Virus record (IMG/VR): IMGVR_UViG_3300046328_000321
Location: 1 to 64,000 of that record
Direction: 5' to 3' (one strand)
DNA length: 64,000 nt
From: a virus
Part shown: in pieces, positions 706 through 63,889 of the stretch
Layout of the letters: every line of letters starts with the position of its first letter
Numbering within the stretch: position 1 is the first letter of the stretch
The notes under the pieces: generated by a model
What the model was told of the DNA's origin: nothing
The model's database searches: none
What the model saw: the letters and a program-made list of their open reading frames with translations, nothing else
Translations under genes and position numbers: made by a program

Positions 706-2925
706 TTATGTGCGTGTTGCGTTTGTGGCGCCAGATGCCACAGAGCTGCTACCCACCATATTCTCTACGATATTACCAATCACGGTCCAAGATAGAGCGC
801 CTGTGGTTAAAGTATCATGTACCACAGAAGACCATTCGGCCATAGAAGACATTCTGTTTAATCTAAGCATATGTTTAGCTATTCTCATTTTAGCTTTTGG
901 GATAGCAAACATTTGACTATATAGATCTTGTCCAGCCAATACAGCCAGGTAATCAGTTAAGATATTATCATCATCTAACGTCATCTCGATCGTCTTACCA
1001 AACATACCAGACGTTGTCAAAGGCATATGCATAATAGATGAAAGATCGACAATATTAAAACTTACATCCAAAGCTAAGGCATTACCTTTAGTATTGAAAG
1101 GTAGTGTAGAAGTGCCTCTGGTGACAGAAACAGATTCTATAATACCTAATTTAATTTGACACCTACCTCTGTCATAAAGTTGACATAACATAGGACTGGC
1201 ATAAGCAGATCTACCTGCTGAAATAGGTAATGCTCCAGCTAAAATCATACACAGTGGTATATAAATATTTTGCATTTGAGACATCACATTCCCATAAGGA
1301 CTGATCAATCTCATTTTATAAGATCCACTTGGTAACTTAGCATTTGAATTTTGCCAGTGTTTAGGGATATCTATATAACCTGCACTCGCCAAACCTTGTA
1401 AAAAATCCGACATGCCAAACGTCACACCGCTGATCATACCCAGACTTAAATCCATAGCAGCACCAGCTACCTTCCCGATGGTGTTAGTAACAAAATTATC
1501 TATTAAGTTACCATCGGCCATAGAAAATCTAATATCTCTAATTTGAGAAGCTGTGCTGTTTAACTTTTGTGAGAGTTCAGATTCAGTCGTGACATTAGAA
1601 AAAGATTCTGAGACACTACCTGTACTATCTACTTTAAAAACAGCAAATTGAGAACCTTGACGAAACTCAGCATCAAAATATTCTGCAAAACCAGGAGGTG
1701 ACTCTTTTAATTCAGCACCTTCTTTGGAATCTTTATCTATACGAGGATCTAATTCAGACTGAGATTCTTTTACAGCGGGACCATCACCACTGGGTGATGT
1801 TGCATTTTTATTATCAGACTTACTGGTAAAATAGCTGCTGGTCATCAAGACACTATTTACCCAATTATAAAGACTGCTAATAACACCTGTATTAACCAAA
1901 TCACTTGTAAATACACTGTCTCGTTTTTTTAGATAACCCACCCATTCTTCCGCCGAGTCTATGTTTTGTGCTGCTTCATATTCTGCTTGAAAAACACGAT
2001 TAGCGGTTCTTTGCGCTTTAGAGGCAATTGCAAATACATCAATATAGTTAGCATTACCATTAACACCTGTAAACATATCAGGCATCAAAGCAGATATTTC
2101 TTTAAGGTATTCCAGATCTAACTCAAAAGGTTGACCGCCTAATTTCTGAGCTTTACCATCTCTTAAAATTTTAGGTAATAGACCTCTATTAATAGCGATG
2201 CTATTAACCAAAATGTTAACAGCTGACCAATACATGTGCATGGTTGGTTTCAATGTGTAAAACTTTGTAGTTGGTCTACCAAATACAGCAGTCGTCACAT
2301 TACCTAAAAATACAGCCAAAGCAATCGGTGGAAAGGCTCTGGCTCCTACAAATGTACCTACTGCATCTCCTAGGTTATAAAAGAAACCCATACCTCGACC
2401 TGTTTTAGCAAGTGTGGTCATATTAGCATCGTAGGCTCTGGCGAAGAAATTTAACAGTCCATTAAACTGAGGTACACCAAATCTCAGAAATATAGTTTGA
2501 CTGGGATCGTCTATAGCCTCTGAATAATAACGACCCATACCAGAATCTCTGACAGATCCCACACTGGGTAATTTAAAAACAGATTTATTTCTACCTTGTC
2601 TGATATCAGCATAAGGTGTAAATCCAGGTCTTGCGTTAATACCGATGTTATTACCTAGTTTCGTACTAGTGAACTTCATCGAAGCTGAAGTATAGTATCT
2701 ATTTTTCTTATCAGCAAGATCTGTAATAGCAGCATCGGAAACCATGAATGCTTGTTTGACCCAATCTTCATCTTTATAAAAAGAAGTTGTGTCTCTTGCT
2801 AGCTGTTGTGTGGGAAAGATACTCGTATTGTCTGTTGTTTCGACAATACGAGTATCAGGTGTCAAATTTTCTGCCATGATTTTACCTTTACGGATAAAGA
2901 TGGACAGGCTATATAGCCCGTCCAT
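706..2925 (-). CDS. Virion structural/baseplate-hub protein (phiKZ gp182-like)
   Basis: ~720-740 aa ORF directly downstream of the tape-measure lysin, matching phiKZ-type synteny; start may be 2877. Confidence 0.6.
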   Translation of the reverse strand: MDGLYSLSIFIRKGKIMAENLTPDTRIVETTDNTSIFPTQQLARDTTSFYKDEDWVKQAFMVSDAAITDLADKKNRYYTSASMKFTSTKLGNNIGINARPGFTPYADIRQGRNKSVFKLPSVGSVRDSGMGRYYSEAIDDPSQTIFLRFGVPQFNGLLNFFARAYDANMTTLAKTGRGMGFFYNLGDAVGTFVGARAFPPIALAVFLGNVTTAVFGRPTTKFYTLKPTMHMYWSAVNILVNSIAINRGLLPKILRDGKAQKLGGQPFELDLEYLKEISALMPDMFTGVNGNANYIDVFAIASKAQRTANRVFQAEYEAAQNIDSAEEWVGYLKKRDSVFTSDLVNTGVISSLYNWVNSVLMTSSYFTSKSDNKNATSPSGDGPAVKESQSELDPRIDKDSKEGAELKESPPGFAEYFDAEFRQGSQFAVFKVDSTGSVSESFSNVTTESELSQKLNSTASQIRDIRFSMADGNLIDNFVTNTIGKVAGAAMDLSLGMISGVTFGMSDFLQGLASAGYIDIPKHWQNSNAKLPSGSYKMRLISPYGNVMSQMQNIYIPLCMILAGALPISAGRSAYASPMLCQLYDRGRCQIKLGIIESVSVTRGTSTLPFNTKGNALALDVSFNIVDLSSIMHMPLTTSGMFGKTIEMTLDDDNILTDYLAVLAGQDLYSQMFAIPKAKMRIAKHMLRLNRMSSMAEWSSVVHDTLTTGALSWTVIGNIVENMVGSSSVASGATNATRT

Positions 2926-5900: not shown

Positions 5901-8900
5901 AACCAAGATCCATCTCTGTTACCGCCTCCATCTTTGTCGTTCAATTTCTCTTTGGCTTTCTGACCGCGTTTAGCAGCGATACGAGCCATACGCTCTAACC
6001 TACTACCCTTGTCAGCTTTACCAGGTATAGCTATCTTCTCAGATGCTTTTTCATCGAGTTGATCCTTAATAGCTCCTACACGCTCTTTACCTTCTATGAT
6101 TTTGTCTTTGACAGACTTACTCATAGATCCTAAGAATCCCAAAGCTTTGCCAGTAAGAGACTTCTTATCAGGCATAGGTCCTATGAAAGATTCTTTATGG
6201 GCTTGGTAAGCTTGTAGTTTTTCTTGTACATGTTTCTCAGCACTTTCTGCTTTTGATCTCAAGTATTGTCTGATAGATCCAGGTTTGTTCTCAGTTTCTT
6301 TTTTATCTTCGGTCTTATCCTTAGACTTAAAGTACTTGTCTTTGAACTCTGAATATTTCTTACTGAAAGAGAATTTCTCTTCACCAGGCTGAGGACCGAC
6401 AAACTCTTCTTGAAACTTGGCTTGTTCCTTAATAGTCTTGCGTTCTTCTTTTCGTTTGGCTATATTAGCCAAACGTTCTTCTCTGGTGTCTTTTTCTTTT
6501 TTGACAGGTTTCTTATCTTGTTCAGTGGTTGTTTTTTGATCGCCTATACCAAAGTAACCACCTACTTTACTCAACAGACCTTTGGCTTGTTTACCTTGAT
6601 CTGTATCGTCGAACAATTTTCTTAAAGCTGAGAAAGACTTTTCAGTACCGCCTGTATTGGTGCCTTCTTTTACAACTTGTTCAGTTGTTTCAGAATCTTT
6701 TTCACCTTTACGTTTTTTCTTTTTACCCCAGTTCTTGAGTATGTCTTTAATCTCATTCAGGGTATCCAATATTTTCTTGTTACCGAATCCGATACCTAAG
6801 TTGCTTGTATCAAAACTTTTAAAGGCTTTATTGGCTAATTGCCAAGCACCAGAAGCCACAGCTCCTAACACCTTAGCACCGAACTTAACGATGGTTTTAC
6901 CACCTGTATAAAGGTTTCTTAAAGAAGATTTGATGGATCTTCCTTTGATATCCACAAGACCTCTAATGATATCAGCGTTAGAGAGTATGATGTTACCGGC
7001 TTTGTCTACGACTTCACCTTTGATATCAGAATACTTTTTTATCACGGTACCAGAAGCTTTGTCGTAATATTCACCAGATTCAGCCAAGATCTTTTTTATC
7101 TTGGGCATGGCTTCGCCCTTGACATAGATATCAGCATCAATAAAGACATCTCTCACTATACCAAGAACAGCACCTGCACCTTTGAAGACACTACTGGTTA
7201 TTCGTTCAAGACCTTTATAACCCATCTCACCGACGTTCATGATAAGGTCTTTACCGAGATTACCTACAGTTCTTACTGTCTTATCTATTTTATCTCTGGA
7301 TTCATAGATCTTGTTAACACCGGTACCTATGGTACTTAGAGTACCTTTAGTGACTTTACCAGCTAAAGATAAACCAAATCTACCTGTACCCAACACAGCA
7401 TCTTTGACAAGTCTGCCTGCTGTCACGGCTGAATCACCAAAAGAACCAAAGAAGTTTTTATCTATCGTTAGACCTGGTATGGACAATATAGTCAATTTAC
7501 CTAAAGCATCTAGCTTGTCTAACGATGTTTTTGTATGTTCTGAAATAAGTCTTAGGTATTCAGTCTGAGTACCAGCCATCTCCTTTAACCCATCCATATC
7601 CCCAGATTTAAGTTTAGATAGATCATCAACTTTTTGATTGACTTCTTGTATAGCCGCCATGTTCATACCGTTCATGGTAACCAGATCTATCTTTCTACCA
7701 TCTGGAGCGGCCTCTTCACCCAAGTTACGTTTAACGTCTTGAGCCATGGGTCCTATTTTAGGACTATTGGAATCTTCACCTAAACCTTGTTTATAATTCC
7801 AATTAAAAATTGGAACATTTTTCATAGATGATAAAATGGATCTTCCATTAAAACCAGGTATAACTCTACCATCGTACTTACTAATATTAGTTTTAGTATT
7901 TACGTCAGATGTTGCTATGCGTTGAGCAGCAGTTGTGTCTTTAATAAATTTTAAATATTTGTCCATAACGACGGTATATTTACCATCGCTATTCATTTTG
8001 ATAATACCTGCATTAATCAGTGCTTTATCTTGACCTGCTTCAAGATACTTACTAATGACATCCTGAACGTCAGGAGTAGCCCCTCTAATACTATCTATTT
8101 CGTTTGTAAAGGCAGTACTTGCTTTAAATCTATCTCGATTACCCTCAGCTTCCATCTTTCTAAAAATAGATTCAGCAACTTTTGCTCTGGTGCTGGAAGA
8201 CATCTTTTTGAAATCATCGTCTTCAATTATACTGTCTAAAGATGTATTATTATTTTTACCTGTAGCAAAATCAGCTAAGAATTGTTTAAACTCTTCACGC
8301 TCTGCTTCATCAGCATCTTCACCAAGTATTTTATCAGTTATATCGGCAATAGTCCTATTGAAACCATAAGAACGATTTTCAACAGCTTCTTTAATACTAT
8401 TTTGTATTTCAGCATCTAAGTCAGATTGAGTTTTAAATTCACCCTTGACCTGATCATAAACCAGAAGAGAACTGTTTCTTCCTTGAGTCCTTGTCATTCT
8501 CAATTCTTGATGAATTCTAGATAAATAACCAGGAATGATTTCAGTCACACTAAGTAACATACTACTATCTGACTGTGCCTTAGCACCAGGTACATCAGAA
8601 GCAAATAATTTCTTAGCATTTAGTCTATCCTCAGGACCTGTTTTATTCCCCATGTCTAATATCTCATCGAAGGTCTCGAATAGAAATCTCTTAAAGAAAT
8701 TGTTACTCTGTAAACCATTCTTCATATCCTGACTTTTCTTGAGCTTATCTATATACTTGTAAGGATTGGCAATCATACTCTGCCATTTCTCACCAGTCAT
8801 TTTAAGATCAGGGAATTCTTTTTCTAGTTGTTTTCTGAGTTCTGGAGTCAATAAGTTTCTGAGACTATTTATACCCATGGCACCCAATTGCTCACCAAAG

Positions 8901-9985: not shown

Positions 9986-12492
9986 ATGATGCCATCTTCT
10001 TCTCTACCCTTTAATTTAGATCTGCTAAACCTCACAGATATAGATATCAGAAGTCTACGACCTGTAAAAGTATTGGATATCACTGATGGTCTTAGTAAAA
10101 ACTTTCACCCTGATGGATTGTTCAGCACAGAAACATTTGGGATGATTGGTGAAGAGAAAAGAAATCGGATGTTCTCTTTTATAGAATTACATATACAAAT
10201 TCTTCACCCTATTGTTTTTAAAGCTGTGTATGATCTAAAAAGTCTATATGGTGACATCATGTCATCCAAAGGGTATGCTATTTTCGATCCTCAACTTAAG
10301 GACTTTGTTAAATCAGATCCTGTTGAAGGTAAAACAGGTTTTGATTTCTTTATTAAACATTTCAAAGAAATCAAATTTGAAGAAAGACCTTCTCCCAGAC
10401 GAGAGTTTAACATCAAGTTGGTGAATAAATATAGAGAAAAGGCACTGATCGATAAATTTGTAGTTATGCCTGCTGGGTTAAGAGACTACACTTTAGATGA
10501 GAATAACCAACCCAGCGAAGATGAAATCAATACTTTATATAGGAAGGTATTATCTTTAGCCGGTGTGATCGGTACAGTGGACTCTAAACTAAATGCTGAA
10601 TATTTTAACAATATGAGGTTTCAGTTACAGATTGCTTGTAACGAGATTTTTGAATATATTAAGAACTTGCTTGAAGGTAAAAGTAAACTTGTTCTAGGTA
10701 AATGGGCTGGAAGAAAAACTTTTCACTCTACTAGAAATGTGATTACTTCTTACGTAAGTAAAAACAAGAAACTATTTGGTCCTAATCATGTCTCTACCAA
10801 CCAGACTGTAGTTGGTCTTTATCAGTTTCTTAGAGCCACGTTACCTCTGTCTATTAAGAATGTCAGAGATGGTTACATGACTAAAGTATTTTCAGGTCCC
10901 AATACACCTATGATGTTAACGGATAAAAAAACACTAAAGAAAGTCATAGTACCCATTGATGGTAAGGAATACGATAAGTGGATGACCAATGAAGGTTTAG
11001 AGAAAGTGTTTGCTACTTACGGTCAAGAAAACTTAAGACACGATCATGTTGAAATAGCTGGTCATTATGCAGGACTTATTTTTAAAGGTAAGGATAATAC
11101 ATATCGTTTTCTACAAGACATAGATGAGTTACCTGAAAGATACAATAAAGAAGATGTATCGCCCATCACAGTGACAGAACTCATTATGTTAAGTGTTTAT
11201 GAAGGTTCCAGTGAAATACCTTGTTTTGTTACTCGTTATCCTGTCACAGGTTACGGCAGTATCTATCCAAGTTATGTTTATTTGAAATCTACGGTAGAGA
11301 ATGAAATTAGAATTTTGTTAGATGATAATTGGGAACCAACAGAACAAACATGTGCAGAATTTCCTACACCAGGTAGTGGTTTTTTTAATTCTTTCTCTGT
11401 GAGTAGTTCTCATTTAGGAAGATTGGGAGCTGATAAGAAGCAGTTTTTGGATATTTAAATTTGCTCTTTTACCTATAATGCGGTTTAATTAACGTTATGG
11501 TGAAAAGCATGTTTAAAAGATTTTTCCACACAGTTTTTTTGATTTACAACATTAACTGATGTGGAAAAAGCTTGAGATTGGTAATCTCATAAACAAAATT
11601 TGTTATGTCCTCTTAGGTAGTAATATCTAAAGAGTTTTTTCTTGAATTGCTAGAAAGCCTTTAGAGCTTTGTTAACCACTGCGAGACGAAAGTCAAAGCC
11701 AAGGTTTGAAAATAACAGAGATTAGGTAATCAGCAGCTAAGACGCTAAAGTCAGTTGTGAAATTGATCATGCGTAAAGTTCAACGACTAACCCTTAAGCA
11801 AGGTGTAGGAGATAGTATCTCCGAAGTGGGAAACACCCTACTGTTCTACAGAGGGTGAAGATATAGTCTGCTCCTTTGGGAAAGCCAAAGGCGGGTGTCA
11901 AAGCACACCGGGTTACTTTATGATAGGCTTGATGCCGAACGACTGTAACTGGACAATAGGTTCGATAAACGTGAATACTGATTCACAACTGTCGCCTGTG
12001 GAGGAAATACCACAGTGATAACTTCTTGAATTGCTGGGAACTCTTGTTAGACTGTTGAACTAAAGCGGAGTGTGAAAACACATACGTCTATGTTTGAAAA
12101 TCAGCAGGTAGAGACAATCAGCAGCTAAGCTCCTTTAAACTGGAGAAAGTTCAACGACCATCTCAGAAATGAGAGTAGGATCTAGTAGGTCCGAAGTGGG
12201 AAGCATCTAAACAGGTAAAGCTGAAGATGGTGATATGGTCTGTTCCTGTATGAGAATACAGGCGGGTGTCGAAGCATACCGGGTGTAAAGGGTAGGCTAT
12301 TATAGCTGAGCGGTTACATCGGACAACAAGGGTGACACGATGTCTTTGGTCTGTGTGATGAGTGAAGAATCCAAAGCAGAGATCAAAGACAAATTAAATT
12401 CTAGAAATTATTATATCGGAGTTAACAACAAGATGAATTTCAGTGGTAATGACGACATTTTGGATTTGACCTTGGCCAACATGACGAGTTAA
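9986..12492 (+). CDS. Virion RNA polymerase beta'-like catalytic subunit (phiKZ gp180-like); spliced exons 9986-11434, 11961-11966, 12331-12492 (~538 aa)
   Basis: DGLFSTETFG, TRYP motifs; joining the three exons restores LGAD-FD-GDTMSL, the DxDGD Mg-binding motif. Confidence 0.92.
11435..11960 (+). mobile_element. Group I intron 1 (no intact homing endonuclease)
   Basis: Upstream exon ends in T, intron ends in G; core motifs P gaattgctagaaa, Q aatcagcagc, R gttcaacgacta, S aagatatagtct; P7.1/P7.2 hairpins (IA-like). Confidence 0.9.
11961..11966 (+). other. 6-nt micro-exon TTCGAT (Phe-Asp of DFDGD)
   Basis: Lies exactly between the terminal G of intron 1 (ggacaatagG) and the start of intron 2; supplies the missing FD in frame. 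Confidence 0.88.
11967..12330 (+). mobile_element. Group I intron 2 (ORF-less)
   Basis: P gaattgctgggaa, Q aatcagcagc, R gttcaacgacca, S gatatggtct (P7 GACCA/TGGTC covaries with GACTA/TAGTC of the other introns); IGS GTCG pairs exon CGAT with a U.G wobble; ends ggacaacaaG before GGT GAC. Confidence 0.92.
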
Positions 12493-12496
12493 AAAT

Positions 12497-15400
12497 ATGC
12501 AAAAACTTTTTAGTCTTTTTTACAGAGAAGTAGGAGCTCGAAGAATACAAAACTTGGCCAGTCCTAAGTTGATAGACTTCAATAGCTTTCCTCGTAACTC
12601 TGTTTACCATTGTTTACAGCAGAATGACGCCAGAGATTTAGATGTATCTAAATTGTATTATAAAGGTTATAAGTCCAAGATCGCTGTGGACTATGTCATA
12701 GAAACCAATTATACAGAAGGCGGAGCTAAAAGAATTTCTTTTGTGCTCAAGAACGCTATTCGTATGTTTCATACTAAGAACAAACAATTTCAATACAGAC
12801 CAGATGCTATTTCCTTTGTAAAGGATAGTGGTGTATTGTTGGTGCAAAACTATAACTATCTGAATCAGTCTTATCGATACATGGACATGGCTTTAACGCC
12901 TTACTATATTTTTAAGAATCAATACAGCACGGTCTTGAAAACTATAGCTGATCAGATTAATAAATCTGATCGTCAGCATTTCATCTTCATAGATGTTCCC
13001 AGAGAAATACCTGCTGTTAGTTTTCTAGAACAATTTTCTAGAAATAAAGTCACAGCAGGTATGCTGTCTTTGTTCAACTCTGTGGAAAAGCTTTTAATTT
13101 TAGAACTCTATAAGTGGTTGGATAAAGAACATAGTGAAAATAGTATTTTTTCTATACTCAAAGACAAACAATTGGGCATGGTGAACTTGGTGTTCTTTAA
13201 TAAGAACGGAAAAGCTTCTGTGCTTAATTTAGGTTATATGTTCAGCTGGATCAAAGGTCATCAGAATATCATAGGCTTCACAGACACTGTACAACTTGAA
13301 GATACTCAATTACAGAGATTGTTTTTGAAGTTTCTTTTGGATATTAATACAGGCGACGATGCTGTAGAGATAGAAATACCTACCATAGATAGCATTGATC
13401 ATCCCAGAAACGAATCTGATTTGGATGAGTTTGAAGAATCTGAAACTAATTTTCCAGTCTCTGATGCTTTTATACATGGTGTCAGTAAAGATAAAAGTAA
13501 AGAAACTGTTTACAAAACTGCTGAGGTGTCTGACGATATAGACGATGGTTTAGAACAAACAGAAGATTTGGATATTATCTTAGCCAATATAGATCAGGAT
13601 TTAGAAGCCATAGATAAAGCACAGAAGACCAAACTCGCTAAAAAGGGTATGGTTATCACAGTCGATGGTAATCTGCAAGAGACTCATATTAAGAAAGAAG
13701 TTACAGAAGAAGAGGTAATGCTTGAGGTCTATGGAGATAAAACTTATCAAGAAAGTTTAAAAGCCTCTATAGATGCAGCTGCTGACACTGGTAGACTATC
13801 TGCTTCTGATTATAAGAAGTTGATTAAAGCTTCTCAAGAATTTGAAACGATGAGTAATCCTTACAATGGTAAAGAGTCTATCTCTGCCTCTAATAAGGTT
13901 ACAGTGGCTGATGTTACCATGAATGAAGAAGATAACATCATTATTGCGTCTGAATATCTTACAGACAAAACGATGAACCAATCTTCTTTACAAACTTTTG
14001 ATAAACAGTATATTAATACTGTTATGAAAAAAGACATGTTGATGTTGGTGTCTGGGTTACAAAAAGCTGGTGTACTTATTACCAATTATGAAATCCAAAG
14101 AGAAGTCAGTATCATGGGTAGTTATGATGTACACGAGGTGCAATTAAAACCTGTGGACGGTATGGCTTCAACCGTTAGATTCCGAGTACCTGTACCTGAT
14201 GAAAACGGAGTAATGAAAGTAGGTGGTAGCAGCTACAGTTATCGTAAACAGATTGTAGATTTACCTATACGCAAAATTGATCCTATCACGGTGGCTTTGT
14301 CGAGCTACTATGGTAAAACATTTGTGGCTGTTTCTGATAAAAAATCCAACAGTTCTTACGATTGGCTGTTGCGTAATATCTCTAAGATCAGCATCTCAGA
14401 CACACCGATTATTACAGACTTAGGTCCCGCTAATGTTTATAACAATCTGTTAAAAGCTCCGTATCTTTATAGTTTTTTATCTCAGAACTATAAAACGTTT
14501 AAGATTGAAGGTAATACGTTTATTTTTGATGAGCGTGAGCGTAACCTCATTATAGAAGATCATGCTAAGATCGAAAAAAACGGGAGTATCGTTTGTGGAT
14601 TTACAGCTAAACTTGAACCTATATTAATGTCAGAAACTGAAGAGTTTCTTATCTACAAAGCAGGTGGATATAACAACATCGGTCGTATCGAGGATATGTT
14701 AAAGTTAGACAAGACCAAAGCTCCTATAGACTTTACTGAACTTCGAGTCTTTGCCAAAACCATACCTGTAGGGGTTGTATTGGGTTACTATATTGGATTT
14801 GAGAAATTGTTAAAACTGACCAAAGCCAAGTATAGAATTATAGAAGGTCGCAAACAAAAAGATCTTCAGCAAGATGAGTATGCTCTGACCTTTGCAGATG
14901 TTTCGTATATTTTCACCAGAAATCAAAAAGTCACCAGTTTGATCATGTCTGGATTCTTGGAATATGAAAAAACATTAAAACAATACCCTGTTGAGTTATA
15001 TAACGATAAAGATGTTTATTTCAACTTGTTTGATAGTAAATCATTGTCTTCTTTATATATTAAAGAATTAGACATTTACAGGCAATTATTTATTGACGGT
15101 ATTACAAAGACCATCTTGGAACAGATGAACATGCCTGTGACATTCGAAGGATTGTTGGTAAAGTCAACTGAAATGTTGATTAATTATCATCATCCTGATA
15201 CTCAAGACATGGAACATATGCGTGTTCGCGGATATGAACGTTTGGCTGGTATAGTCTACAGTGAACTTTCGACAGCCATACGTCAGTTCAGAACCAAGAA
15301 TATATCCGGTAGAGCCAAGATTGACATGTCTCCGTTTGCCGTATGGTCGACGATCATGAAAGATCCAGCCATCAAGTTAGTAGAGGATATCAATCCTATA

Positions 15401-17369
15401 CAAAATATGAAAGAATCTGAGATCGTTACCTACGTAGGTGAAGGTGGTCGCGGTAAGGAATCTATGAACAAAGCCACCAGAGCTTATCATAGAAGTAACG
15501 TGGGTGTGGTATCTGAAGCTTCTGTAGATAGTGGGGATGTAGGTATTAACTTCTATCTCTCAGCCAATCCTAATTTTAAAGACATGCGTGGAGTCATCAA
15601 AACTGATAAAATAATGACTCCTTCATCCATGGTAACGACAGCTACTATGCTTGCACCAGGTAGCAGTAACGATGATTAACTGTATATAGTGAAAACTGTA
15701 TACGCTAGCTGTAATACGTTAAATTTTAAAACAGTCGAAAGATTCTTTCAATACAGAGTTTAGTCAGATAGTAAAGTGTTTTTCTCAGAAAAAATAAATC
15801 TGCTAAATATTACGGTAATGATAATAATGTTAAAGTAACAACTTTAAATTAGTGTCTTAATCAAAAAAAGTTAAAAGTTTCTTTTGCCAAACATAAATAT
15901 TCGTATTACAGTCAGCTAAGTCCTTTGAAAACGAAACTTTTCAAAGAATCTCTTTGAATTGCTAGAAAGCCTTTAGAGCTTTGTTAACCACTGCGAGACG
16001 AAAGTCAAAGCCAAGGTTTGAAAATAACAGAGATTAGGTAACCAGCAGCGAAGCTCCTTTAAACTGGAGAACGTTCAACGACTAGAGCCTTATCAGCTCG
16101 TAAAACCCCAAGCGGGGAAGAAGCGGAGAGCACCTTACTTTAACAGAAGGTGAAGATATAGTCTGTTCCTTTGGGAAAACCAAAGGTGGGTGTCGTTGCA
16201 CACCAGGTGTAAAAGGTAAGCTATATAGCTGAGCGCTTACATTGGACAATAAGGGTAAGAGAGTAAATTTTGTGCAAATTCAAATGTCTCATTTGATCGC
16301 CTGTAGGGATTATCATCAACCCATGGTAAGAACTGGTTATGAATATATCGTCTCGGGTAGAACAAGTGAACTCTTTGCTTGTAATGCCGATCAGGACGGT
16401 AAAGTATTGTCTGTGGATGATCGTGGTATCATTGTGCAATTTAAAGATGGTACTCAAAAGGGCATTCAACTGGGTCGCATTTACGGCAAGGCTGAAGGTA
16501 GTGTCTATCCCCATGATGTAAAAACACATTTATCACCAGGTGTTAAGTTCGTCAAAGGTGATAACTTGGCTTATAATTCTGGATTTTTTGAACAAGATAT
16601 ACTTGATCCCAAGCGTGTCGTGATGAAGAATTCCATGGTTATTAAAGTAGCTTTATCAGAAACTGCTCAAACACATGAGGACAGTTCTTCTGTTTCCCAT
16701 CGTGTATCAGGTATGGCTACTGCTAATACTACGAAAATGAAATCTGTCACAGTTTCTTTTAAACAGAATGTTCATAACGTAGTTCCATTTGGTAAAGAAA
16801 TTAAGCCTAATGACATCTTGATGGTATTGGAAGATGAAATCACTTCTACCGGACAATTTGATGAGGCGTCTTTATCGGTTCTAGCCGATTTATCAAAACA
16901 GACTATCAAGTCTAAATATGACGGTGTACTGGATAGAATTGAAGTTTATTACCACGGATCTAAAGAGGATATGAGTCCTTCTTTAAGAGCTTTAACTGAT
17001 AAAAGCGATAAGTTGATTTCATCTATTTGTAAGTCTACAGGGACTCCTGTTATTACAGGGGAGGTGAATGACGAGTATCGTGTTAGCGGTAGTAGACTCG
17101 GACTAGATAAGGCAGAAATCAAACTTTATATCACCATCGCTACTGATGTTGGTGTGGGTGATAAACTTGTGTTCGCTAATCAAATGAAGAGTGTGGTTGG
17201 TGAGGTTATGGATTATGATGTCCATACTGAAAGTGGTGAGCGTATAGATGCTATCTTTGGATTCAGGTCCATCATGGCTCGTGTCGTTAACTCTCCTTTT
17301 ATCATAGGTACCACTACTACGTTGTTAAGAAAAGTTGCTGAAAAAGCTGTCAAAGTTTATAAAGGTTAA
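12497..17369 (+). CDS. Virion RNA polymerase beta-like subunit (phiKZ gp178-like); spliced exons 12497-15676 and 16254-17369 (~1431 aa)
   Basis: Splicing gives SSNDD-GKRVNFVQIQMSH (equivalent to RpoB HDDANRALMGSNMQRQ); HEDS and GDKLVFANQMKSV RpoB-type motifs. Confidence 0.9.
15677..16253 (+). mobile_element. Group I intron 3
   Basis: Exon ends GAT, intron ends ggacaataaG; P gaattgctagaaa, Q aaccagcagc, R gttcaacgacta, S aagatatagtct. Confidence 0.92.
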
Positions 17370-46790: not shown

Positions 46791-46928
46791 CTGATAGATA
46801 TATACACAGCCTGATAAGCTGTGTATATATTTTTTTTACCTTTTGTAAACTATTTCAGTCACATATATTCTATTTGAGCTGTGGTTTAACTTAACATTTA
46901 GTTGAGACTATTAGTTCAAGGAGTTATC

Positions 46929-49350: not shown

Positions 49351-49779
49351 ATGTCAATAACCGATAAAGTAAAATCGTTGCAAACAATTGTGGATTCTCA
49401 GTTTGTTAAGACACTTTGTCTTATGGAACATGAGGATGTGTTAGAACTGGTAAATGAACATAGTTTTAATAATGAATTTAAACAAGCCATTCTTGCTATG
49501 GATGCAGCAATCCATGCAGTATTATGGTCTCGTGGTACTTATGATGCTCTGACCATATCTCATTTTAATCAAATTCAATCTGATAAGAATATAAAACTAG
49601 CGATGAGGAATGTATCTGTAACAGATGCATTCATGGAACGAAACCGTGAGAAGTTAAATTCAGCTCCTTCTCATGTTGCTCGCTGGCAAATTATTCTTGA
49701 ATCTGAATTTAATAACGTTGTGTTGATGGATCGTACCGTTGCTATTATTTTGAAAGGTGAAAAAAATGGTAAAAGGTAA
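49351..49779 (+). CDS. Hypothetical protein
   Basis: Likely start MSITDK after AAGGA. Confidence 0.6.
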   Translation: MSITDKVKSLQTIVDSQFVKTLCLMEHEDVLELVNEHSFNNEFKQAILAMDAAIHAVLWSRGTYDALTISHFNQIQSDKNIKLAMRNVSVTDAFMERNREKLNSAPSHVARWQIILESEFNNVVLMDRTVAIILKGEKNGKR

Positions 49780-50488
49780 ATTAATCGTTATAGAGGGTGT
49801 GGACGGTGTGGGTAAAAACACACAAGCTAAATTCATGACAACCTTGTTATCAGAGATAGTTCCTGTAAGGTTTTTCTCATTTCCTCAATACCATACAGAA
49901 ACTGGATTAGAGATTTCAAAATATCTTAACGGCAAAGCATCTGATCTTACAAGAATGCAAATTGCTGAACTCTATGCTAATGACAGGTTAGCTGTAAGAG
50001 ATGAAATCAATGAATGTCTTGACAAAGGTATTTTTGTAATATGTGATCGATACGTCATGTCTAACATAGCGTTTCAATCATCTTGGTATCTTAGCCGTGA
50101 TGGAGCTGGTGAGGAACAAGTCAAACTAGCTCAGAAAATAATTAACGATATTGATGAGTTAGAATATCAGCAAAATCAAATGCCTGTTCCTGATTTGACA
50201 TTGAGTTTGATTCTACCTGTAGATGTAACTATGGTTAGGGTTACAGGTAAAGATAGACGAGAATACACAGATGCAATTCAAGATATTCACGAAGTAGATG
50301 TGAAGTTACAAACACATGCTGCTGATTTTTTCAGTAAGATGGCTAACATGGGATTTTCAGAAACAATTAAAGTGATCAATTGTTGGAATTTTGTTAAAAA
50401 AGAACAATATTCTAAACAAGAGATTCATGAGAAAATTTGGTTTCCAAATGTTGTCAACCTCATTAAGAGTGTACGCGGGGATCGGTAA
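49766..50488 (+). CDS. tmk: Thymidylate kinase
   Basis: P-loop IEGVDGVGKNTQ, FP, LYANDR and ICDRY motifs. Confidence 0.9.
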   Translation: MVKGKLIVIEGVDGVGKNTQAKFMTTLLSEIVPVRFFSFPQYHTETGLEISKYLNGKASDLTRMQIAELYANDRLAVRDEINECLDKGIFVICDRYVMSNIAFQSSWYLSRDGAGEEQVKLAQKIINDIDELEYQQNQMPVPDLTLSLILPVDVTMVRVTGKDRREYTDAIQDIHEVDVKLQTHAADFFSKMANMGFSETIKVINCWNFVKKEQYSKQEIHEKIWFPNVVNLIKSVRGDR

Positions 50489-50993
50489 CAGAGATACACC
50501 TGAGTTCTACCTGAATAGAATGCGTAAAATAGCAACCCTTCTAGAGTTGCGAGGTTATGTGTTGCGATCAGGTGGGGCAGATGGAGCAGACTCTGCTTTC
50601 TACGAAGGTCTGTCAGACAAAGCCAACGCTGAGATATATTTGCCATGGGATGGTTATAATGGTCATTCCCATAAAGCATGTATCCCAGCGGAAGCTTACA
50701 GATTGGTGGAAAATCTGGTGCCAGACTTTCAATACAGATCACAAGCTGTACAACATCTGTTTGCCGGAAATGCGCAACAGATATTGGGTAAAGATCTGGA
50801 TTCACCTTCTGAATTTGTGATCTGTTATACCAGAGATGGTTATACAGGTCCTCACGACAGGAGCTTCAGGACAGGTGGTACCAAGATAGCCATAGACTTA
50901 GCAGTCAGTATAGGTATACCTGTGTTTAATATAAAAAGGATAGATCATCATAATACAGTGGTGAACTACTTCAACGATGATCACCTCCTTTAA
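50448..50993 (+). CDS. SLOG/DprA-like Rossmann-fold nucleotide-binding protein
   Basis: YAGIGNRDTP, LRSGGADGAD, YLPW and GGT motifs. Confidence 0.75.
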   Translation: MLSTSLRVYAGIGNRDTPEFYLNRMRKIATLLELRGYVLRSGGADGADSAFYEGLSDKANAEIYLPWDGYNGHSHKACIPAEAYRLVENLVPDFQYRSQAVQHLFAGNAQQILGKDLDSPSEFVICYTRDGYTGPHDRSFRTGGTKIAIDLAVSIGIPVFNIKRIDHHNTVVNYFNDDHLL

Positions 50994-51084
50994 ATCCCCT
51001 TTGTAAAAATACATAGTCATATATACTATACTTGACAATTGGGTCAATTTTTAATTGATACGGTTATTAAATGAGTGAAAACTT

Positions 51085-51157
51085 AGTCGTAATTCTCTGA
51101 TGAGTTCTGCGACTTTAAATAAAAGAACGAAACACCGTCCACAAGACGGTGTAAGAA
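51085..51157 (+). ncRNA. Type I hammerhead ribozyme with loop II pseudoknot; predicted cleavage after 51153
   Basis: UUCU-CUGAUGA-GUUCU[GCGACUUUAAAUAAA]AGAAC-GAAA-CACCGUC[CACAA]GACGGUG-UA^AGAA; loop II GCGACU pairs with upstream AGUCGU (51085-51090). Confidence 0.9.
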
Positions 51158-51482
51158 ATGTGTTAGCTTACGGTGATTACACACCATAAATCTTATTGGC
51201 TTATGGTCTAGCTGATGTTCTAACCAAACGTCAAACCGTGTGTCTATAGTTAGTTTCGCGAAAGAATACCCTTGGTCGGGATCTTAGCGCCGCTTCTATA
51301 GAAAGTTGTAAACTCTGGACTTGATCGCTCTAGAGAGCAGCCTATCATCCATTCGTATCTAATATGAGTGGATTTTAGAGTGCTATAAGATCTTACCGAC
51401 TATCAATCTACAGAACAATGTCAGCAGTTTATTCTGCGAAAATGACTTTGGTTCTTGATTGATAGTCGGTATTTTTTTTTTT
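51154..51482 (+). ncRNA. Unknown structured ncRNA downstream of the hammerhead
   Basis: No ORF of 60 aa or more; four nested stem domains; ends in a 15-bp perfect stem (51394-51408/51457-51471) plus a T-run. Confidence 0.65.
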
Positions 51483-51541
51483 CTTTGGAAATATAAATAG
51501 TACCATACGGAGCATCTGCTCCGTATGGTACTTTATTATGT

Positions 51542-52126
51542 TTATGTATAAGTAAATGAAGTATCCTGACCTTCATGTAACTGGACTATTAACCCAGTAG
51601 CATCTGTACCAGCACTTACAACATCGATGGATATAATATCATCATCGTTTATAACAATACCGTTAGAAGGTAATGAATTGTTAAAATTTACAACAGCTGT
51701 TAGACTTGAGGTTTCATTAGCGTCAATAGACAGTAATGTACTTCCAGCTATATTAACACCATTCAAATTTACTTGTATGGTTACAAGTCCCATATTTGAA
51801 GGTATAAAAACACTGGCTCTTACATGTTTTAACAAGAAAGTTCGTGGAGATCTTAAATAAGCTACATTAACGCCTGCGGTTATAAACGTAGTAGTGTCTT
51901 TATACGCTAAAGCTAAAACTAGAGGATTAAAGATAGGTGAGTATTTTTTAACTGTGTCAGATCGAAGTCGTTCACTTGAAATATCAAGTAATGCTGTCGC
52001 ATTAACATCTGAGATATATGCATCTGTTTTATACTCATTACCGGTTTTAACATAGTAAAGAGTGGAAGCCTGTATGGCTGAAAGTAACGGTTTAGTCAAA
52101 ACCTTAGCTATACTAAGAATGTTCAT
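51542..52126 (-). CDS. Putative virion/tail-fibre-associated protein
   Basis: Beta-rich C-terminus (DDDIISIDVVSAGTDATGL); terminator at 51498-51533. Confidence 0.55.
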   Translation of the reverse strand: MNILSIAKVLTKPLLSAIQASTLYYVKTGNEYKTDAYISDVNATALLDISSERLRSDTVKKYSPIFNPLVLALAYKDTTTFITAGVNVAYLRSPRTFLLKHVRASVFIPSNMGLVTIQVNLNGVNIAGSTLLSIDANETSSLTAVVNFNNSLPSNGIVINDDDIISIDVVSAGTDATGLIVQLHEGQDTSFTYT

Positions 52127-63559: not shown

Positions 63560-63889
63560 GGCCCGCTGATGAAATTGGTAGACATAACGGAAAACCAGAA
63601 AGTTAGTCCGCCTTTACTAGTAATAGTAAAGTAAACTGTGGGTGAACTCAGGAGAATCTAAAGCGCAAGCCATGATAATCGTGAGCCAAGCTAGAAGTAC
63701 ACTTCTAGAAGGTGCAGAGACTACTGGAAAGGTAAAGTCCTTTTAATAACCAGCTAGAGCGCCCACTACCGTAATAGAATTTCTATCGGTAAAGAGATAG
63801 TCCATGTCCATTGGAAACTTTGGAACACATGCTTAAAATCCGTCGCTTCCGAAAGGAGCATTCCGGTTCGATTCCGGAGCGGGCCACCA
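63560..63889 (+). tRNA. trnL: tRNA-Leu(UAA), intron-containing (exons 63560-63591 and 63832-63889)
   Basis: Acceptor GGCCCGC/GCGGGCC, anticodon stem ACGGA/TCCGT with loop CTTAAAA, long variable arm, T-arm TCCGG-TTCGATT-CCGGA, A73 and encoded CCA. Confidence 0.88.
63592..63831 (+). mobile_element. Group I intron in tRNA-Leu
   Basis: P3 gtgggtg/cgcccac, P gaactcaggagaa, Q aatcgtgagc, R gtgcagagacta, S aagagatagtcc; terminal G at 63831. Confidence 0.85.

Follow-up and report, generated by a model that had tools for sequence, protein, structure and literature searches.

The window analysed here is a 64,000-nt stretch, positions 1 to 64,000 of the IMG/VR virus record IMGVR_UViG_3300046328_000321, a fragment of 113,368 bp with a CheckV completeness of 43%. 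The phage encodes a multisubunit RNA polymerase beta subunit (ORF 12497-15679), and nine group I introns are found within the 113 kb (window 11590-12262, 15897-16186 and 63576-63824; L020 15059-16515; L021 7769-8093). Three of these introns flank the beta-subunit ORF, two just upstream and one just downstream, and four further introns lie in tandem within 1.5 kb. No tRNA or tmRNA was detected in the window. At the locus of interest, a thymidylate kinase ORF (49757-50488) is followed by a DprA-like ORF (50391-50993; phrog_768) that overlaps it by 98 nt, the true start of the DprA-like protein probably lying later because its match begins at residue 26. A gap of 548 nt separates the end of this plus-strand gene at 50993 from a minus-strand gene at 51542-52126, and it was in this gap that the initial annotation had placed a pseudoknotted hammerhead ribozyme.

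The ribozyme motif occupies 51085-51157 of the plus strand, where the core, three stems and a 6-bp pseudoknot could all be read off the sequence. The 5' arm of the pseudoknot, AGUCGU (51085-51090), and an AA spacer (51091-51092) precede stem I, a helix of 4 bp formed by UUCU (51093-51096) and AGAA (51154-51157). Core nucleotides C3-A9 (CUGAUGA, 51097-51103) lead into stem II, which comprises 5 bp including G10.1-C11.1 (GUUCU 51104-51108 with AGAAC 51124-51128) and is closed by a 15-nt loop II consisting of GCGACU (51109-51114) and an A-rich remainder (51115-51123) ending in UUAAAUAAA. Core nucleotides G12-A13-A14 (51129-51131) are followed by stem III, an 8-bp hairpin (ACACCGUC 51132-51139 with GACGGUGU 51145-51152, loop CACAA) in which A51132-U51152 corresponds to the A15.1-U16.1 pair. 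H17 is A51153, the last base of a GUA triplet, giving a predicted cleavage site at 51153/51154 in agreement with standard hammerhead numbering. The core elements (CUGAUGA, GAAA and the GUA triplet), the stems and this cut position are those named in the initial annotation, and each was located where it had been proposed.

Several features place the motif in type I. Stems II and III are loop-closed and stem I is open, the three helices are flush with the core, and the invariant core, the A15.1-U16.1 pair and a non-G H17 are all present, as is the complete extended consensus CUGAUGAG-U...A-CGAAAC...GUA. The tertiary contact that links loop II to the stem I side in type I hammerheads would be provided by the pseudoknot, in which nucleotides 1-6 of loop II are complementary to the 5' arm through five Watson-Crick pairs and one G.U. 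This pairing, also claimed in the initial annotation, was verified in the sequence, and its register is that of four related hammerheads (L014, L015, L016 and L028) described below.

The layout of the gap suggests that the ribozyme belongs to a transcription unit of its own. A recurring promoter-like motif had been reported upstream, and we found six copies of it in the record, all on the plus strand and each of ~40 nt (236, 46843, 48861, 51001, 68099 and 97984), with the ribozyme 49 nt downstream of the copy at 51001-51040. The motif reads TTGTAAA-N8-AGTCAYATATA...TTGA (TTGTAAA-N8-AGTCAYATATAYTCTATTTGAGCTAT). The copies at 236, 46843, 48861 and 97984 directly follow a hairpin and T-run; those at 236, 48861 and 97984 lie ~85-110 nt before a Shine-Dalgarno (SD) sequence and start codon, and the copy at 46843 precedes a short SD-led ORF only. 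This placement is typical of a promoter and points to promoter activity, and given the phage's own RNA polymerase subunit the motif may represent a promoter class of the phage polymerase. A short leader (51041-51084, plus strand) would connect the presumed start site to the ribozyme and contains no ORF with a ribosome-binding site. A 29-aa ORF at 51100-51189, whose AUG falls inside the catalytic core, was rejected as a gene as it also has no ribosome-binding site.

Downstream of the predicted cut, the body of the putative released RNA extends over 51154-51393 of the plus strand, with no credible ORF in this interval and with the 3' strand of stem I as its first 4 nt. It runs into a plus-strand terminator at 51394-51486, in which a 15-bp outer stem (51394-51408 with 51457-51471) is followed by T11 and CTTT, the T-run being present on the plus strand only. 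A second, perfect 15-bp hairpin at 51499-51532 is a two-way terminator and lies directly after the minus-strand gene 51542-52126. The 240-nt body had a fold z-score of -3.35, which became about -10 with the terminators included, and the plus strand was more stable than the minus strand by 8 kcal/mol for the body and by 8-13 kcal/mol across the folds compared.

Sister hammerheads were retrieved by scanning IMG/VR for the pattern CTGATGAGTTC-N10-30-GAACGAAAC, which was derived from the window sequence. The pattern leaves stems I and III and the pseudoknot free, whereas the core and three pairs of stem II are prescribed by it, and agreement of the sisters there is by construction. The scan yielded eight loci (L010-L017), in each of which stems I and III form and complete a type I hammerhead. 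When applied to 596 Gb of bacterial and archaeal genomes, the same pattern gave 30 matches against ~23 expected by chance, most of which fail type I closure and a few of which are type III. Separately, an exact 17-mer from the ribozyme had eight IMG/VR matches, all of them chance matches in unrelated sequence.

The stems of the sisters were parsed by script, and a MAFFT alignment of the nine hammerheads was left unused because stems III and I were misaligned in it. Six of the eight sisters, together with a hammerhead from a cyanobacterial MAG (L028), share one layout, in which a pseudoknot of 4-6 bp begins at loop II nucleotide 0-1, spacer and stem I together measure ~6 nt, and the spacer is 2 nt long where stem I has 4 bp and 1 nt long where it has 5 bp. 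The window ribozyme has a 6-bp pseudoknot at loop II offset 0, a 2-nt spacer and a 4-bp stem I, the arrangement also seen in L015, L016 and L028. L014 has a 5-bp pseudoknot at offset 1 with the same spacer (2 nt) and stem I (4 bp), and L017 and L011 each combine a 4-bp pseudoknot, at offsets 0 and 1 respectively, with a 1-nt spacer and a 5-bp stem I. The pseudoknot sequences themselves are mutually unrelated (AGUCGU/GCGACU in the window, UUAGGC/GCCUGA, ACGUCG/CGACGU, CAGGC/GCCUG and others). The summed number of register-constrained pairs was 39, compared to 19.3 +/- 3.2 in 5000 flank shuffles, and 33 compared to 17.4 when the window was left out; in neither case did any of the 5000 shuffles attain the observed sum. 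Since the register-constrained pairing exceeds all shuffles even though the paired sequences differ, the window fits a structural sub-class whose pseudoknot covaries across non-orthologous members. Pseudoknots of this kind were shown experimentally to be required for fast cleavage, and they occur in about 40% of hammerheads, in all three types, and constrain the lengths of the stems (Perreault et al. 2011, PMC3088659).

We examined what lies directly downstream of the sister hammerheads. In four of the eight (L010, L011, L013 and L014) the predicted cut falls 379-394 nt upstream of an Rfam match to the 3' domain of GOLLD RNA, and the four GOLLD 5' domains lying between cut and match align with one another and contain conserved blocks. 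In these four unrelated viral contigs the cut site of the pseudoknotted type I hammerhead marks the 5' boundary of the complete GOLLD RNA. Hammerhead-led GOLLD regions were delimited at L011:6186-7094 (minus strand), L013:5724-6581 (minus strand), L018 (G006:1625-2550) and L019 (G004:877-1782), and of the papers searched only three mention both hammerhead and GOLLD, with no connection drawn between them. Transfer RNAs were found behind other members. The L015 hammerhead (6034-6129, minus strand) cuts 8 nt before a tRNA-Lys within an array of 28 tRNAs, and a second L010 hammerhead (1425-1510, plus strand; core CUGACGA) uses the acceptor strand of tRNA-His as its stem I, its predicted cut lying one base before the called tRNA-His start and leaving G-1. 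L016 and L017, both from jumbo phages of ~220-230 kb, are followed by ~300 nt of ORF-free RNA that had no match among cultured phages. The remaining sister, L012, stands ~60 nt before an SD-led ORF, so the sub-class is not confined to non-coding RNAs. In the same 51-kb phage a Pistol ribozyme (L012:7407-7472, minus strand; 42.1 bits, above cut-off) lies ~1 kb upstream of the type I hammerhead and on the same strand.

The RNA behind the window ribozyme appears to be uncatalogued. No Rfam family matched 51154-51482, and GOLLD in particular gave no gathering-score match in the whole record and none at E<=10 locally. A nhmmer profile built from the four GOLLD 5' domains likewise had no match in 51154-51482, and blastn of the released RNA against the regions downstream of the sister hammerheads returned none. 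In global alignments scored against a shuffle background, the released RNA reached z 3.1 with the L017 RNA and z 0.7 with the L016 RNA; the resemblance to the L017 RNA is too weak to support a claim of homology. The sequence GAGCAGCCTAT at 51335-45 is similar to GCAGCCTGT, a motif of the RNAs that follow the L016 and L017 hammerheads.

A functional hammerhead at this position might act mainly on transcripts reading through from the thymidylate kinase and DprA-like genes, in which case it would fix the 3' end and the stability of their mRNA or keep the two units insulated. This would be consistent with the lack of any plus-strand terminator from the DprA-like stop codon (50993) to the ribozyme, with the well-known occurrence of hammerheads between phage operon genes (PMC3088659) and with the position of the L012 sister before a protein-coding ORF. 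However, a promoter-like motif separates the ribozyme from the DprA-like gene, the ~330 nt downstream lack ORFs, are folded and end in a terminator of their own, and most sisters stand directly before stable RNAs. We therefore regard read-through cutting as unlikely to be the main role, while noting that it is compatible with maturation of the downstream RNA. Because no terminator separates the DprA-like gene from the ribozyme, read-through transcripts would also be cut, and the RNA would consequently have one defined 5' end whichever promoter was used.

The motif might also be a look-alike that arose by chance, and its rarity was assessed with a stringent type I descriptor. This asks for CUGANGA, GAAA and U-H, for flush stems I and II with no fewer than 4 bp each, and for a stem III of 5 bp or more that includes its A-U pair. 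Searched in both orientations, the 113,368-bp record had a single match to it, the site at 51085-51157. The descriptor matched nothing in 300 genomes simulated with a first-order Markov model and nothing in 492 kb of reversed real sequence, in which hairpins are preserved, and in the forward direction the same real sequence gave the expected hammerheads only. An analytic estimate for the minimal descriptor was ~0.002 chance matches per genome, and the all-Watson-Crick stems observed here are far rarer by chance than that estimate. Taken alone, the window pseudoknot is modestly significant, being equalled in the same register by 1.7% of flank shuffles.

One property of the site makes this calculation less stringent. 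Read on the minus strand, stem III (51152-51132) and the adjoining T-rich stretch TTCGTTCTTT (T 5/8) were flagged as terminator-like by a simple terminator scan, and because stem III doubles as such a site, the GAAA beside the hairpin is less surprising than a naive calculation would imply. In a non-catalytic reading, 51132-51152 would be a back-up minus-strand terminator whose A-rich side happens to supply GAAA, and 51085-51114 would be an ordinary hairpin. The minimum-energy fold of 51080-51165, which consists merely of two hairpins, is compatible with such a reading, and by our estimate a few look-alikes beside terminators are expected over many thousand windows. The minus-strand gene, however, already ends at a stronger hairpin, the perfect 15-bp terminator at 51532-51499, 350 nt upstream of 51152-51132, and no minus-strand unit ends at 51152-51132 itself.

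Insignificant Rfam scores would also be expected of a look-alike. The search with Rfam hammerhead models that the initial annotation had proposed as a check returned no significant hammerhead match. The type I model (RF00163) had no match at E<=10 in the whole record. The best score came from RAGATH-1 (RF03152), at 18.8 bits against a cut-off of 56.3 and with an E-value of 0.26 for the 96 nt searched, although the sequence was aligned to this model in exactly the proposed architecture; type III (RF00008) scored 13.9 bits against a cut-off of 48.5 over the same 96 nt. By the Rfam gathering threshold, then, 51085-51157 falls outside type I, and the only gathering-score Rfam matches in the window are four group I introns. 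Yet none of the eight clear sister hammerheads (L010-L017) reaches the Rfam gathering score either, and the best RF00163 score anywhere in five sister records was 22.1 bits. The negative result says little, because eight clear hammerheads fail the same cut-offs, and the Rfam 15 hammerhead models are insensitive for all nine of these type I pseudoknotted phage hammerheads (L010-L017 and the window).

A look-alike would likewise be consistent with the lack of a conserved orthologue among the sequences searched. Searches with megablast and blastn against cultured phages gave no match to the locus. In tblastn, the 194-aa neighbour protein had a single distant match at 38% coverage and the DprA-like protein had 1330 distant matches, none of them close, and searching the neighbour protein or its alignment against IMG/VR and GTDB genomes revealed no related locus. 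Homologues of the neighbour protein (P0001, P0004 and P0005) are 57-72% identical. In the one metagenomic relative compared, L001, whose neighbour protein is 67% identical, the matching place is occupied by an 86-nt spacer with two hairpins and a different gene, and the hammerhead-led unit is absent. Under the look-alike reading, CUGAUGA, U16.1-H17, a flush stem I and a flush 5-bp stem II containing G10.1-C11.1 would nevertheless all have arisen by chance, together with a pseudoknot in the exact register of independent hammerheads, on a strand with its own promoter-like motif and T11 terminator. We consider this quite improbable, and conclude that 51085-51157 is very probably a genuine hammerhead of the kind known from phages.

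Stems I and II are both absent from the minimum-energy fold of 51080-51165, where U51108 pairs with A51091 rather than with A51124 and a 7-bp hairpin (51085-91/51108-14) competes with stem II. Programs restricted to nested structures cannot represent pseudoknots, so any pseudoknotted hammerhead is expected to fold without its stem II in such predictions; when the pseudoknot 5' arm was omitted, stems II and III became the minimum-energy fold. A decayed or regulated hammerhead, which would misfold through the competing hairpin and remain largely uncut or be cut under particular conditions, could account for this fold and for a stem I of merely 4 bp, but it is highly improbable given that the fold is the expected outcome for a pseudoknotted ribozyme and that four independent sisters likewise combine a 2-nt spacer with a stem I of 4 bp.

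The best explanation, which we consider likely on the sequence evidence assembled here, is that a pseudoknotted type I hammerhead at this locus gives a downstream RNA of ~330 nt its 5'-OH end. Transcription would start from the promoter-like motif at 51001-40, probably with additional read-through from the upstream thymidylate kinase and DprA-like genes, which lack a terminator of their own. The fold would be braced by pseudoknot pairing of the first loop II nucleotides with those just 5' of stem I, and the RNA would cut itself between A51153 and A51154. That 51085-51157 does self-cleave we hold to be highly likely. Nearly the whole ribozyme would remain on a discarded 5' piece ending in a 2',3'-cyclic phosphate, and the ORF-free structured RNA, from 51154 to ~51482, would be freed with a uniform 5'-OH end and a 4-nt scar and would end at its own terminator. 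Cleavage of a type I hammerhead leaves the catalytic body with the 5' fragment, so that the released RNA would carry only a few stem I nucleotides. Such near-scarless release makes the arrangement suited to 5'-end maturation.

The fuller picture, of a ribozyme that makes the 5' end of an uncatalogued ~330-nt structured RNA, itself served by a dedicated promoter and terminator, in a giant phage encoding its own multisubunit RNA polymerase, is more tentative, and we would put its chances a little short of even. As a ribozyme, the element is ordinary: intergenic phage hammerheads with pseudoknots were already known in 2011. Its interest lies in what it would mark, namely the precise 5' boundary of a phage RNA gene that had no annotation, so that its RNA would be easy to clone and study. 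The locus is also further evidence that hammerheads of this sub-class regularly stand at the head of stable RNAs in phages (GOLLD, tRNAs and uncatalogued RNAs). Since Rfam's type I model does not pick up the sub-class, annotations of phage genomes under-report these ribozymes. If the proposed role is correct, the locus would suggest, together with the hammerhead-led GOLLD RNAs and tRNAs, that large phages generally use pseudoknotted type I hammerheads to give stable RNAs exact 5' ends without host RNases.

Among known systems, close counterparts are the pseudoknotted type I hammerheads of bacteria and phages (Perreault et al. 2011, PMC3088659; RF00163), with which the window ribozyme shares an identical core, an open stem I, the three-stem layout, a 6-bp pseudoknot joining loop II to the stem I side, and a phage intergenic location. 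It differs from them in scoring below the Rfam cut-off and in its setting, a promoter-to-terminator unit of its own ahead of a non-coding RNA, whereas theirs lie between protein genes. RAGATH-1 (RF03152) shares the type I element order, the CUGAUGAG...CGAAAC...GU-H consensus and a long hairpin as stem III, but in its model stem II is vestigial and positions 1-25 form an additional 5' element with no match in the window ribozyme, and with 18.8 bits against the 56.3-bit cut-off the window ribozyme is not a RAGATH-1 member. HDV-like theta ribozymes, reported next to phage tRNAs (PMC10879173), are comparable in that a small self-cleaving ribozyme with a presumed processing role stands beside a structured phage RNA; they have another ribozyme fold and are tied to suppressor tRNAs, unlike the window hammerhead. 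A further parallel is with the hammerheads that lead GOLLD RNAs and tRNA arrays (L010, L011, L013, L014 and L015). The ~330-nt window RNA matches neither the GOLLD 3' domain nor the four-sequence 5'-domain profile, and in contrast to the tRNA-array hammerheads the window ribozyme lies 12 kb from its own phage's tRNA genes. In all of these, as in the window, a hammerhead of the same sub-class stands directly 5' of a stable structured RNA on which it would leave almost no ribozyme scar.
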